Position numbers and translations under genes: made by a program
In this document: positions 1-4,247 of the stretch, piece after piece
How the letters are laid out: each line of letters opens with the position of its first letter
How positions within the stretch are numbered: the first letter of the stretch is position 1
Source: a virus
Taxonomy: Duplodnaviria > Heunggongvirae > Uroviricota > Caudoviricetes
Length of the DNA stretch: 4,488 nt
Virus record (IMG/VR): IMGVR_UViG_3300029512_000078
Direction: 5' to 3' (one strand)
Notes under the pieces: generated by a model
Told to the model about the DNA's origin: nothing
Seen by the model: only the letters and a program-made list of their open reading frames with translations
Database searches by the model: none

Positions 1-788
1 ATGGTATTGAAGTTCGTCGTGATGCTTATGGGCGTTACAGCCTGAACGATCTGCACAGGGCAGCCGGGGGAGAACAAAAAAACCGCCCGAAATACTGGAT
101 CTCCAATAAGCAAACCTGTGAATTGATTGAACAACTTTTCACCGAGGGTGGAATTCCGCCTCTGGAACAAAATCAACCAGTTAGCGTCATTAATGGCGGA
201 AATAACCAGGGGACGTATGTCTGCAAAGAACTGGTGTATGCCTATGCAATGTGGATCAGCCCGTCATTCCATCTGAAGGTGATCCGTACTTTCGACATGG
301 TAACCAGCGCACCGGAAAAATTATCCGGACAGGCTGCTGACAAGATGCAGGCTGGCGTGATCCTGCTGGACTTTATGCGCCGGGAATTAAATCTGTCTAA
401 CTCATCAGTGCTTGGAGCCTGTCAGAAGCTTCAGGAGGCTGTTGGCTTACCGAATCTGGCACCGCGCTATGCCATTGATGCTCCTGCTGATGCACACGAT
501 GGCTCAAGTCGCCCGACACTGTCACTGAGTGCACTGTTGAAACAGTATGGTATCCGCCTGACGGCTAATCAGGCATATCACCAGATGGTGAAGCTGGGGA
601 TCGTTGAACAACGCGAACGATACAGCCGTACCGCGATTAACAACATCAAAAAATTCTGGTCGCTGACCGCGAAAGGCTGCATGTTCGGCAAGAACATCAC
701 CAGTCCTGCAAATCCGCGCGAGACGCAGCCGCATTTCTTCGAATCCCGATTTCCTGAGCTGTTAAAGCTGCTCGATACCGTTCATTGA
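1..788 (+). CDS. KilA-N domain / phage antirepressor-like protein, 5'-partial (gene starts upstream of window)
   Basis: Frame beginning at nt 3 is open with no stop until TGA 786-788. The TTG at 123 used by the ORF track is probably internal, since the upstream in-frame translation (GIEVRRDAYGRYSLNDLHRAAGG...KYWISNKQTCELIEQL...GGNNQGTYVCKELVYAYAMWISPSFHLKV) matches the KilA-N core pattern (GG..QGTW/YV...A..FA.W.SP.F). The C-terminal half resembles KilA-C/antirepressor C-terminal regions. Family assignment is from memory of domain patterns. Confidence 0.7.
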   Translation, partial: GIEVRRDAYGRYSLNDLHRAAGGEQKNRPKYWISNKQTCELIEQLFTEGGIPPLEQNQPVSVINGGNNQGTYVCKELVYAYAMWISPSFHLKVIRTFDMVTSAPEKLSGQAADKMQAGVILLDFMRRELNLSNSSVLGACQKLQEAVGLPNLAPRYAIDAPADAHDGSSRPTLSLSALLKQYGIRLTANQAYHQMVKLGIVEQRERYSRTAINNIKKFWSLTAKGCMFGKNITSPANPRETQPHFFESRFPELLKLLDTVH

Positions 789-789
789 G

Positions 790-1785
790 GTGACTGTGAG
801 AGCACTACTGACCCCTGAAATTGCCCCGCGTATGGGGATCGTATTGTTCAGACCCGGTTCAGAGCTGATGCCCCTGTTTATGCAGGGGCGTGTCCTGCTG
901 GAGCCTGAGCCGGAGCGTTATTCATCTTTCGCCAGTGGTGCCGTTCCGGCGGCATCACAACCGCTGGCGGATGATCCTGCCGTTCGGGCCGTGTTCCGCA
1001 ATGAGGCAGTGATCCGTCGTGCTGGTGGTGTGGAATGTCTTGAAAGCTGGTTACTTCGTGAAAAGGGCTGTCAGTGGCCTCATTCCGGCTGGCACAGCGA
1101 GAACATGACAACAATGCGACACGCGCCGGGCGCAATCCGTCTGTGCTGGCACTGCGATAACCAGTTGCGCGATCAGTTCACGGAACGGCTGGAATCAATG
1201 GCAACGGATAACTGTGCCCGCTGGGTGTTGTCTGTTGTGCGTCGGGATCTCGGTTTTGATGACAGTCACGTTGTGACAATGCCTGAACTGTGCTGGTGGC
1301 TGATTCGTAATGATCTGGCGGATGCCTTACCGGAAAGTGCAGCCCGTAAGGCACTGAGATTACCGAAGCCTGTTGTGCCGTCTGTCACCCGGGAAAGTGA
1401 TCTTGTGCCTTCGGTTCCTGCCACCAGCATCATCCAGGATAAAGCGAAAAAGGTGCTGGCGCTGAAAGTGGATCCGGAGTCGCCGGAGTCTTTTATGTTA
1501 CGCCCAAAACGTCGCCGCTGGGTTAATGAAAAGTACACGCGCTGGGTTAAGACGCAGCCGTGCGCATGTTGCGGAAAGCCTGCTGATGATGCCCACCACC
1601 TGATTGGTCATGGTCAGGGTGGAATGGGTACAAAAGCGCATGACCTTTTTGTGTTGCCTTTGTGCAGAAAACACCATGACGAACTGCATGCGGATACCGT
1701 GGCATTTGAAGAGAAGTATGGTTCCCAACTGGAGCTGATATTTCGTTTTATCGATCGCGCGCTGGCGATTGGTGTGCTGTCCTGA
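790..1785 (+). CDS. DUF968-type prophage protein (YdfU-like) with C-terminal HNH-like Zn-finger/His-Me motif
   Basis: 331-codon ORF starting with GTG at 790, one nt after the upstream stop (possible translational coupling); the alternative ATG at 832 has no obvious SD. C-terminus [21 protein letters not shown]...[17 protein letters not shown] fits the HNH pattern CxxCG..HH..GG..N/H..LCxxH..H. Position between antirepressor-like gene and Q matches where DUF968 genes sit in lambdoid prophages (recalled, not searched). Confidence 0.7.
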
Positions 1786-1802: not shown

Positions 1803-2186
1803 ATGCGTGATATTCAGATGGTTCTTGAACGCTGGGGTGCATGGGCGGCAAATAATCATGAGGATGTGACCTGGTCGTCCATTGCTGCCGGTTTTAAGGG
1901 ATTAATTCCTTCAAAAGTAAAATCTCGCCTGCAATGTTGTGACGATGACGCGATGATCATTTGCGGGTGCATGGCCCGTCTGAAAAAGAACAACAGCGAT
2001 TTACACGATTTATTAGTAGATTATTATGTATGTGGTATGACATTCATGTCACTGGCAAGTAAGCATTGCTGCTCGGATGGTTATATCGGGAAAAGGTTAC
2101 AGAAGGCTGAGGGCATAATTGAAGGGATGTTAATGACATTAGATATCCGGTTAGATATGGATATCGTTGCTAATAATTCTAATTGA
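1803..2186 (+). CDS. quuD: Late-gene transcription antiterminator Q (phage 82 / DLP12 QuuD-like family)
   Basis: 127-aa product [26 protein letters not shown]...[16 protein letters not shown]...[17 protein letters not shown], recognised as Q82-family antiterminator with Cys-rich Zn-binding motifs. ATG at 1803 is preceded by GGAG (1792-1795) at 7-nt spacing; the ORF-track start at 1788 is a TTG and less likely. Symbol is by resemblance to the E. coli K-12 DLP12 gene; the upstream genes differ from K-12 DLP12, so locus identity is uncertain. Confidence 0.8.
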
Positions 2187-2384: not shown

Positions 2385-3467
2385 TTAGAACTGATAAACC
2401 AGACCTACAGCGGCGATGTCGTCGGTATCAATACCAGCTGTTTTGGTAAACTTACTATCGTCAATTAAGTTGATTTTGTAATCAACAAAAGTGGACATGT
2501 TTTTATTAAAGTAGTAAGTAGCACCGACATCGACATACTTGACTAAGTCTCGGTCACCATGAACACCAAGGTCTTTACCTTTTGACTGAAGGTAAGCAAC
2601 AGATGGGCGCAGACCGAAGTCAAACTGATATTGTGCTACTGCTTCAAAGTTTTGTGCTTTGTTTGCAATATGGTTATTACCAAAAACGGTCATATTCTGA
2701 GTTTCAGAATATGTGGTAGCCAGATAGATATTGTTCGCATCATATTTCAGGCCTGCAGCCCATACTTCCGCATTTTTGCCGGAGGCATTGAATTTGCTCT
2801 TACCATAGGCGACCTGACCGTCAGTGCGATCTGATTTAGCATAGGTTGCACCCACGCCGAATCCTTCATACTCATAAGTAGTGGAGAAACCGAAACCATC
2901 ACCATTGGCTTCAGTTACGTCAGTGCGGTCATTTTTACCCTGATACTGAGCAGCAAAGTTCAGGCCATCGACCAGACCAAAGAAGTCGTTGTTACGATAA
3001 GTTGCAACACCAGTTGCACGTTGAGTCATGAACACGTCGGTTTGAGTCCAAGTGTCACCACCGAATTCTGGCAGGACGTCAGTCCACGCACCGATGTCGT
3101 ATGCTACACCGTAGTTACGGCCGTAATCGATGGAGCCGTAGTCACCGAATTTCAGGCCAGCGAAGGCAAGACGGGTTTTATCTTTGGAGGAACCTTGAGA
3201 TTCAGCGCGGTTGCCTTTGAATTCATATTCCCACTGACCGAAACCAGTCAGTTGATCGTTGATTTGGGTTTCACCTTTGAAGCCAAGACGGGCATAAGTA
3301 GTATCACCATCATCTGCATCATTAGAGGAGAAGTAGTGCTTAGCATTAACTTTCCCGTACAGATCCAGCTTGTTACTGTCTTTATTATAAATTTCAGCTG
3401 CCTGAGCAGACATCGCCATCAGTACTGATGCAGCTACAGCAGAAATTGCCACTGTTAATTTTTTCAT
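2385..3467 (-). CDS. nmpC: Outer-membrane general porin (OmpC/OmpF/PhoE/NmpC family), prophage-encoded moron
   Basis: 360-aa product starting [23 protein letters not shown] (signal peptide, AQA-AE cleavage) then [17 protein letters not shown]..., contains the L3 constriction motif PEFGG and ends in the OMP beta-signal ...VGLVYQF. The ORF-track N-terminal extension to 3527 ([11 protein letters not shown]...) is rejected in favour of ATG 3465-3467. Symbol by analogy with the DLP12 porin located between quuD and essD; could equally be another prophage porin paralog. Confidence 0.9.
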
Positions 3468-3737
3468 CGTGAGCCCTTTTTTTGAACTATTATTAAAAAA
3501 TGATGTCACTGCGCGATAAATATTCATCTAATCAATGTGATTATTTCAAGATGTAAGTTTTGGTTTCTCGTTTGATTTGTGAAGTAGATCTCTATTTTTA
3601 TCTGAACTTTTTTCTATCGAATCCTATTCATGGCTCTTGGCTGAATAAAAATAAATCTATTAGCCAATTTATATTAATGTCTGTTATTTATAAGTGCTCT
3701 ATAATTTGAAGGTTCAATTTAAACCGGCTAAAAATAA
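3468..3737 (-). promoter_or_regulatory. AT-rich upstream region of porin gene (promoter/5'UTR; likely binding sites for nucleoid or porin regulators)
   Basis: About 270 bp of strongly AT-rich DNA with many A/T tracts immediately upstream of the porin start on the minus strand. Exact -35/-10 not assignable because too many near-consensus hexamers occur in such AT-rich DNA. Confidence 0.4.
3700..3705 (+). promoter_or_regulatory. Perfect TATAAT -10 hexamer on plus strand (candidate late promoter pR'-like or divergent promoter); weak -35
   Basis: TATAAT at 3700-3705; the best -35 at 17-bp spacing is poor (ATGTCT). A transcript starting near 3712 would end at the 3887-3919 terminator after about 200 nt, similar in length to lambda 6S RNA (194 nt). 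Chance occurrence in AT-rich DNA is quite possible. Confidence 0.25.
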
Positions 3738-3747
3738 NNNNNNNNNN
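3738..3747. other. Run of 10 undetermined bases (N)
   Basis: Directly visible in sequence. Confidence 1.
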
Positions 3748-3886: not shown

Positions 3887-3919
3887 AAACCCGCCGTCGA
3901 GCGGGTTTTTCCATTTTTT
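3887..3919 (+). terminator. Rho-independent terminator on plus strand upstream of holin gene (second tR' candidate)
   Basis: AAACCCGC-CGTCGA-GCGGGTTT stem-loop (3887-3908) followed by TTCCATTTTTTG (T-run to 3919). Confidence 0.6.
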
Positions 3920-4031: not shown

Positions 4032-4247
4032 ATGAAATCCATGGATAAGTTAACAACGGGTGTCGCCTATGGCACCTCAGCAGGTAGTGCCGGATACTGG
4101 TTTTTACAGCTGCTAGATAAAGTCACGCCCTCACAGTGGGCGGCAATTGGAGTGCTGGGTAGCCTGGTATTTGGCCTGCTGACGTACCTGACAAACCTTT
4201 ATTTCAAGATTAAAGAAGATAAGCGCAAGGCTGCGAGAGGTGGATAA
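4032..4247 (+). CDS. essD: Class II holin (phage 21 S21-type pinholin) with dual-start motif
   Basis: 71-aa product [71 protein letters not shown], with two TM segments and a charged C-terminus, closely resembling S21/EssD as recalled. Met1-Lys-Ser-Met4 gives starts at 4032 and 4041 (antiholin S71 / holin S68 arrangement). SD GAGGTG at 4021-4026. Confidence 0.9.

Follow-up and report, generated by a model that had tools for sequence, protein, structure and literature searches.

A DUF968/YdfU-family protein of an Escherichia coli lambdoid prophage combines a C-terminal HNH module with a second, putative zinc site in its N-terminal domain

We analyzed a gene of the DUF968/YdfU family in a 4,488-nucleotide stretch of tailed-phage DNA (Caudoviricetes; IMG/VR record IMGVR_UViG_3300029512_000078), hereafter the window. 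The gene closes the early (nin-like) operon of a lambdoid prophage. The C-terminal part of the encoded protein is a complete zinc-stabilized HNH, or ββα-metal, fold with the full set of active-site residues. The N-terminal half holds a second Cys/His cluster that is real and conserved, and the predicted structure presents it as a structural zinc site with putative ligands on an HNH-like treble-clef scaffold. On balance, we read the protein as a two-module zinc protein with a complete C-terminal HNH and a second zinc site in the N-terminal domain, probably serving as an accessory nuclease on recombination or replication intermediates.

The open reading frame (ORF) extends from a GTG at position 790 to the TGA at 1783–1785 and would encode 331 residues. 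RefSeq annotates a 96.9%-identical gene of 990 nucleotides from the second GTG as a “DUF968 domain-containing protein”, corresponding to positions 796–1785 of the window and 329 residues, and GTG 796 sits 5 nucleotides after a GAGG (787–790). Residue numbers here follow the 329-residue form, and the 331-residue numbers of an earlier note on this DNA are higher by two. Protein clusters that comprise thousands of sequences show 98% identity to the window protein. The earlier note had pointed to this ORF and to two Cys/His clusters within it, and both clusters proved real: the strings are present, and the clusters are conserved in homologues. The protein divides into the following parts.

796–1785, plus strand: coding sequence of the DUF968/YdfU/PdcB-family protein, 329 residues plus stop codon (Pfam, PHROG, RefSeq)
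796–1275, plus strand: family-specific N-terminal domain, residues 1–160 (PHROG 11007; AlphaFold2 model of the domain alone)
1030–1170, plus strand: N-terminal zinc module, residues 79–125, with the putative ligands C92, H100, C117, and C120
1069–1071, 1093–1095, 1144–1146, and 1153–1155, plus strand: codons of the putative ligands C92, H100, C117, and C120, respectively, the last followed by D121-N122 at 1156–1161
1276–1527, plus strand: middle region, residues 161–244, corresponding to the N-terminal section of the Pfam DUF968 model, with a conserved ELCWW helix and then a linker
1528–1725, plus strand: C-terminal HNH / His-Me finger, residues 245–310, with the presumed zinc ligands C256, C259, C290, and H293 and the catalytic set H267, H268, D283, H294, and H298
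1726–1782, plus strand: C-terminal helix, residues 311–329, packed after the HNH core and within the Pfam DUF968 model (AlphaFold2 helix 311–324, predicted local distance difference test, pLDDT, above 90)

The identity of the C-terminal module is supported by Pfam, PHROG 96, the predicted fold, and residue conservation, all of which agree. The Pfam model DUF968 (PF06147) aligns with residues 162–328 over positions 2–171 of its 171 at 271.7 bits (gathering score 27.8, E = 3.6e-81), and HNHc_6 (PF16784) exceeds its gathering score of 26.6 with 29.5 bits (E = 6.9e-7). PHROG 96, “HNH endonuclease”, matches the full length of the protein (6.5e-176), and PHROGs 96, 131, 22514, 7370, and 589, several of which match residues 238–318, are all annotated as HNH endonuclease. 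We modeled the full-length protein with AlphaFold2 from a 55-sequence alignment (mean pLDDT 88.3). The model contains a helix at residues 245–252, two strands at 265–268 and 286–289, and a helix at 291–299, thereby forming the ββα arrangement at residues 265–299. The earlier note had assigned this region to an HNH / His-Me finger with zinc ligands and proposed a Pfam search and a structure prediction as checks; the HNHc_6 match above the gathering score and the predicted ββα fold both bear the assignment out.

Conservation was assessed with close relatives together with distant homologues collected by an exhaustive phmmer search with residues 1–160 against 1.84 billion cluster representatives. 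The resulting alignments contained 30–55 homologues, down to about 22–30% identity; residues were counted per column, and all 10 cysteines and 12 histidines of the protein were mapped. Among the zinc positions of the C-terminal cluster, C256 is kept in 32/33 sequences, C259 in 31/34, and C290 in 29/32, and position 293 is His in 13 and Cys in 14 of 31. The catalytic set is similarly well kept (H267 29/32, H268 29/31, D283 29/29, H294 27/31, and H298 28/31). In the N-terminal cluster, C92 (53/55), Q93 (54/55), C117 (49/53), D121 (44/53), and N122 (39/53) are conserved, as are position 100, with His in 47 and Cys in 6 of 55 sequences, and position 120, with Cys in 33 and His in 17 of 53. Because of this conservation across homologues, we consider both clusters to be selected features, and the interchange of Cys and His at positions 100, 120, and 293, which is unlike chance, suggests that these positions bind a metal, presumably zinc. 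The earlier note had flagged seven residues of the N-terminal cluster, of which the four at positions 92, 100 (H/C), 117, and 120 (C/H) are those conserved, whereas the other three are poorly kept: H96 in 25/54, H109 in 22/54 (with Tyr in 19 and the rest varied), and H119 in 34/53.

The residue string of the C-terminal module (residues 256–298, nucleotides 1561–1689) has the spacing HH-x14-D-x10-H-x3-H, framed by CxxC...Cxx(H/C). The colicin-type motif HH..N..H...H resembles this spacing. By this correspondence, the structural zinc would be held by C256, C259, C290, and H293, and H268 at the end of β1 would act as the general base. H267, H294, and H298 would bind the catalytic metal, with D283 standing in for the Asn of the HNH motif. 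The residue set suggests a metal-dependent nuclease activity, by which the module would nick or cut DNA with a divalent metal.

The C-terminal HNH assignment as such is already known from the literature and databases. A zinc-finger HNH motif was described for DUF968 proteins by Curtis et al. (2014; PMC4118853), and DUF968 together with DUF1364 (YbcO, PDB 3g27) constitutes His-Me finger group 7, in which YdfU is named, in the survey by Jablonska et al. (2017; PMC5714182). The latter authors also noted RusA, Q, and antirepressor neighbors and proposed a role in recombination or repair, and a nuclease function was predicted for YbcO by Kaur and Subramanian (2016; PMC4999995). Some GenBank phage records already carry the label “HNH endonuclease” or “HNH nuclease” for the gene.

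The N-terminal zinc module, which is conserved, is absent from published descriptions of DUF968 proteins. Residues 1–160 have no Pfam match at E ≤ 10 and none in NCBIfam or PADLOC, and PHROG 11007, a family of unknown function, spans residues 3–135. The phmmer search with this domain returned only 184 proteins at E ≤ 1e-3 among the 1.84 billion representatives, all members of this family but for a single spurious one: P0184, a Cys-rich surface protein of 2334 residues with 20 HYR_4C / Ig-like repeats, was matched at E = 3e-19 in 21 stretches and was discarded as a Cys-pattern artefact. A profile search of the N-terminal module in 5.8 billion proteins retrieved only fragments of the same family and no second architecture.

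A separate AlphaFold2 model of residues 1–160 (pLDDT 89.3) has the same confident topology as the full-length model. A helix at residues 79–86 is followed by a loop (87–103) bearing C92 and H100, a tight hairpin of strands 104–109 and 112–117 that ends in C117, a helix at 118–124 with C120-D121-N122, and a long helix at 130–151. The module follows the ligand order of a treble clef, with two ligands in the loop preceding the hairpin, C117 at the end of a strand, and C/H120 in the next helix. These ligands come from the two strings of the cluster, residues 91–103 and RLCWHCDNQ (115–123), which lie within nucleotides 1066–1164. Every His-Me nuclease has its general base at the end of β1. As this His position (H109) varies among the homologues, the N-terminal module is most likely non-catalytic, and the N-terminal domain would probably recognize the substrate DNA or a partner.

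The N-terminal 115 residues appear to behave as an exchangeable block. The homologue P0034 is identical to the window protein at 54 of 115 positions (47%) up to residue 115 and at 211 of 214 (98.6%) thereafter. From this sharp switch in identity, phage alleles apparently recombined at the conserved LCWHCDN motif. The junction lies at 1141–1161 of the window (residues 116–122) and concerns the proteins P0034, P0138, and P0144.

As for the middle region, the linker is modeled with lower confidence (pLDDT 65–80 for residues 190–240) but contains short, highly conserved motifs between residues 200 and 244 (window 1393–1527), namely E200-x-D202 in RESDLVP and D226 in VDPESPESF, as well as a basic RPKRRRW with invariant P237 and K238 just before the HNH module. 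No known motif was recognized among them; they may serve in docking or form an arm that binds DNA.

The family is widely distributed. In tblastn searches against phage genomes, the protein was found in 191 records, including Stx-converting phages, SfII/SfIV, and mEp390 as well as phages of Klebsiella, Salmonella, Pantoea, Edwardsiella, Providencia, and Vibrio. Its gene is consistently the final early gene ahead of the late regulator: Q or another antiterminator follows directly in E. coli and in Pantoea phage AH07, where RusA is immediately upstream, and the late promoter activator gene lpa follows directly in P1 and in a P1-like contig. In Vibrio phage Her, the early genes end with it, and the lysis region comes next. 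RusA is encoded next to the gene or close by.

The PdcB protein of P1/P7 (AAQ14185) is a full-length homologue of the window protein (26.5% identity, E = 1e-32, 100% coverage). The annotation of the P1 genome had described PdcB as 25% identical to P76162, “a putative E. coli protein”. Like the gene in the window, pdcB and its P1-like counterpart lie directly upstream of a late activator gene.

L004, 3501–4544: P1 pdcB, directly upstream of lpa
L002/L003, 6001–7044: P1-like homologue, directly upstream of lpa

The catalytic residues of PdcB are eroded: H267 is missing, and H294 and H298 are replaced by Gln and Glu, respectively; its relatives P0201 and P0216 also lack H268. Meanwhile, the P1-like clade has lost none of the eight zinc-ligand positions, and its N-terminal module still has the D-N dipeptide. 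The pdcB gene is nonessential for plaque formation (PMC10695390); its knock-down by CRISPR interference gave an efficiency of plating of 0.68, and pdcB::kan lysogens were recoverable and viable.

The origin of the N-terminal module can be approached through its likeness to the C-terminal one. Elements of the two modules run parallel (W85-L86 with W250-V251, C92 with C256, L116-C117 with L289-C290, C120 with H293, and D121 with H294), following the same order of a W-[LV] helix, a Cys loop, β1, β2, and L-C-x-x-[C/H]-[D/H] at the N-terminus of a helix, and D121 falls at the position of the metal-binding H294. Such parallels would fit an ancient internal duplicate of the HNH module that has lost catalysis, which would make the protein a single-chain pseudo-dimer of one live and one dead His-Me finger, but we regard this origin as doubtful. 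The best hhalign path between the N- and C-terminal family profiles does run in exactly the parallel register, with C92 on C256 and LCWHCDNQL on LCRKHHDEL; however, its probability is below 1%, and its score of 16.7 is at chance level. In runs with three slicings, 600 shuffles, and a reversed control, that score was matched by 12/300 column shuffles (4%) and 37/300 block shuffles (12%), and the reversed profile reached 16.4, so that the register was rejected as evidence for a duplication. BLASTP detected no similarity between the two modules (E = 1.2), and Pfam searches with 36 diverse N-terminal module sequences at E ≤ 10 gave scattered single matches, none recurrent and none to HNH. The profile search of the PDB with the N-terminal module alignment likewise yielded noise and no HNH chain, and with the full alignment it found YbcO alone, through the C-terminal module, at E = 0.17. 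A duplicate would also have to account for a first ligand pair of C-x7-H instead of CxxC and for a hairpin turn of 2 residues in place of the 17-residue loop of the C-terminal module, and short treble clefs are known to arise independently (PMC4999995). We tentatively entertain a separate origin, in which a treble-clef or zinc-knuckle finger unrelated to HNH, acting as an adaptor for DNA or protein, was joined to the DUF968 HNH core. It accords with the lack of sequence signal to HNH, with the restriction of the domain to one family of 184 representatives among 1.84 billion, with the exchangeability seen in P0034, and with the zinc ribbon RPA12 as the best, albeit weak, PDB profile match of the N-terminal module (E = 1.1). 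Common descent of the N-terminal module from the C-terminal HNH is possible, and the idea of a degenerate HNH copy in the earlier note is partly supported at the level of the predicted fold: the conserved four-ligand site and the predicted hairpin-helix topology stand, whereas the profile comparisons are at chance, the Foldseek search is not significant, and the catalytic His is not kept.

With regard to function, we favor the reading of a two-module accessory nuclease with a complete C-terminal HNH. The substrate would be recombination or replication intermediates of phage DNA, because the nin-region position is shared with lambda Rap/NinG and DLP12 YbcO, RusA is a neighbor, and the predicted structure is close to that of Ref. 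The protein would be accessory instead of essential, as suggested by the plating efficiency of the P1 pdcB knock-down and the recoverable pdcB::kan lysogens. An extended form of this reading appears unlikely to us: a tandem of two His-Me/treble-clef modules, in which a dead N-terminal copy recognizes a DNA structure or a partner and the pseudo-dimer uses its live C-terminal HNH to cut a single strand of an intermediate that is branched or bound by RecA, the N-terminal module being the functionally indispensable part. Its indispensability is suggested by the persistence of the N-terminal module and both zinc sites in the P1 PdcB clade despite the erosion of the HNH. Several points weigh against the reading that we favor. 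A Foldseek search of the PDB with the N-terminal domain model found nothing significant (best E = 0.63). As D121 occupies the metal-binding position of the HNH helix in 44/53 sequences, the N-terminal module may retain residual metal binding or catalysis in the clade that bears H109. Part of the family may work without HNH catalysis, since the catalytic residues of the P1-like clade are eroded. Finally, no experimental report on the nuclease activity of any DUF968, YdfU, or PdcB protein was found in the literature, in line with the remark of the earlier note that the function is essentially unknown.

Two other roles were weighed. The earlier note had suggested a nuclease or nucleic-acid-binding role at the early-to-late switch. 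In that case, the protein could, for instance, act on Q or Lpa, or on the DNA or RNA that they target, instead of in DNA recombination. In unrelated phage types, the next gene is indeed that of the late activator, Q in lambdoid and Lpa in P1-like phages, and in the P1-like clade the catalytic residues erode but the zinc scaffolds are retained. However, gene position is the sole support for this suggestion, and many unrelated nin genes share the end of the early operon. Moreover, P1 pdcB is nonessential (PMC10695390) whereas lpa is essential, the latter is served by a C1-controlled promoter of its own that lies between the two genes, and Pfam and NCBIfam scans revealed no likeness to any transcription factor family; we consider a switch role very unlikely. 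Still less probable is a prophage defense or superinfection-exclusion nuclease, or a packaging HNH protein like HK97 gp74. HNH domains occur in the defense effectors Cap5 and McrA, both among the structural neighbors of the protein, and HNH proteins assist terminases in some phages. Yet no PADLOC family matched at E ≤ 1, and the gene, which adjoins RusA, is part of the early replication/recombination operon; it shares the orientation of its lytic-operon neighbors and lies close to them. The small terminase gene of the best-matching genome lies about 5.7 kb away, with Q, porin, and lysis genes intervening. We accordingly judged both the terminase-associated and the defense readings unlikely on the grounds of locus context and the lack of a PADLOC match, and retain an accessory nuclease of recombination or replication intermediates as the preferred role.

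By its ORF list, Pfam matches, and RefSeq annotation, the window represents the early/late junction of an E. coli lambdoid prophage. Of 5426 complete E. coli genomes, 4823 were matched by positions 1–2280 in a megablast search, the best at 96.9% identity and with the annotation “KilA-N / DUF968 domain-containing protein / quuD”. In the best-matching genome, the genes just upstream encode RusA, an adenine methyltransferase, and a protein of the LexA family. The neighbors of the DUF968 gene within the window are as follows.

<1–788, plus strand: KilA-N domain protein, its 5′ end cut by the window (Pfam KilA-N, 4.6e-13; RefSeq annotation)
1803–2186, plus strand: late antiterminator Q of the QuuD type (Pfam Phage_antitermQ, 2.9e-53; RefSeq quuD, 384 nucleotides)
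2385–3527, minus strand: OmpC/NmpC-like porin, with the porin domain from residue 49 (Pfam Porin_1, 1.7e-151)
4032–4247, plus strand: P21-type holin EssD
From about 4247, plus strand: start of the next ORF; in the reference locus, the lysozyme gene rrrD directly follows essD

Only 7 nucleotides separate the KilA-N stop codon from the start of the DUF968 gene, and 17 nucleotides lie between its stop codon and the start of Q. Rfam, promoter, and terminator scans detected nothing relevant within the DUF968 gene. The KilA-N protein (window 123–788) has a weak match over 36 residues to the PADLOC candidate defense-system model PDC-S22 (E = 9.6e-6), which probably reflects merely the shared KilA-N motif. 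Between Q and the lysis cassette, the porin gene runs in the opposite direction; it looks like a moron inserted between Q and the promoter and terminator presumed to be the targets of Q. About 120 nucleotides upstream of the holin gene, a terminator-like hairpin, AAACCCGCCGTCGAGCGGGTTT, followed by a T-run (window 3887–3908, plus strand), is a candidate for the late-operon terminator read through by Q. A second terminator-like hairpin (2236–2219, minus strand) lies just 3′ of Q and past the porin gene on its 3′ side. Runs of N flank the porin gene in the intergenic regions at 2281–2311 (31 bases) and 3738–3747 (10 bases).

DUF968/YdfU proteins are among the most widespread uncharacterized prophage proteins of the Enterobacteriaceae. 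The present analysis adds a precise map of residues for mutagenesis, evidence that the unannotated N-terminal half has another conserved zinc site in a fold predicted to be HNH-like, and a link to P1 PdcB, in which catalytic residues decay while zinc scaffolds persist. Together, these pose a testable question about how nuclease proteins of nin regions recognize their substrates, although current phage biology would be unchanged unless the protein has an unexpected activity.

Compared with known systems, the window protein is a typical, full-score member of the DUF968/YdfU (Qin prophage) branch of His-Me group 7, with the same zinc-stabilized HNH and the same neighborhood of RusA, an antirepressor-like protein, and Q as reported for the group (PMC5714182). 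For “DUF968” proteins of Gram-positive phages, a lambda Orf-like N-terminal domain has been claimed (Curtis et al., 2014; PMC4118853). We rejected an Orf-like domain for the window protein, whose N-terminal domain lacks any Pfam match at E ≤ 10, but the idea of an N-terminal DNA-binding domain joined to a C-terminal HNH is shared.

The closest structures are those of P1 Ref and YbcO. The RecA-dependent HNH nuclease Ref (PDB 3plw) has the closest fold, but its Pfam family RecA_dep_nuc (PF16786) stays below the gathering score of 26.9 with 11.5 bits (E = 0.35); the N-terminus of Ref is disordered, whereas the window protein has a folded zinc domain of 160 residues. YbcO of DLP12 / phage 82 (DUF1364, PDB 3g27) is a single domain of 96 residues without the N-terminal domain or the middle region, and sequence comparisons with the window protein reach E-values of just 0.17–0.64. 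Lambda Rap/NinG (PF05766) belongs to the HNH-family nucleases; its gene lies shortly before Q in ninR, and it acts in branched-DNA recombination (PMC4118853; PMC5714182). The NinG profile has no match at E ≤ 1 in the window protein, and the architectures differ; by gene position only, Rap/NinG is a positional and probably also a functional analogue of the window protein.

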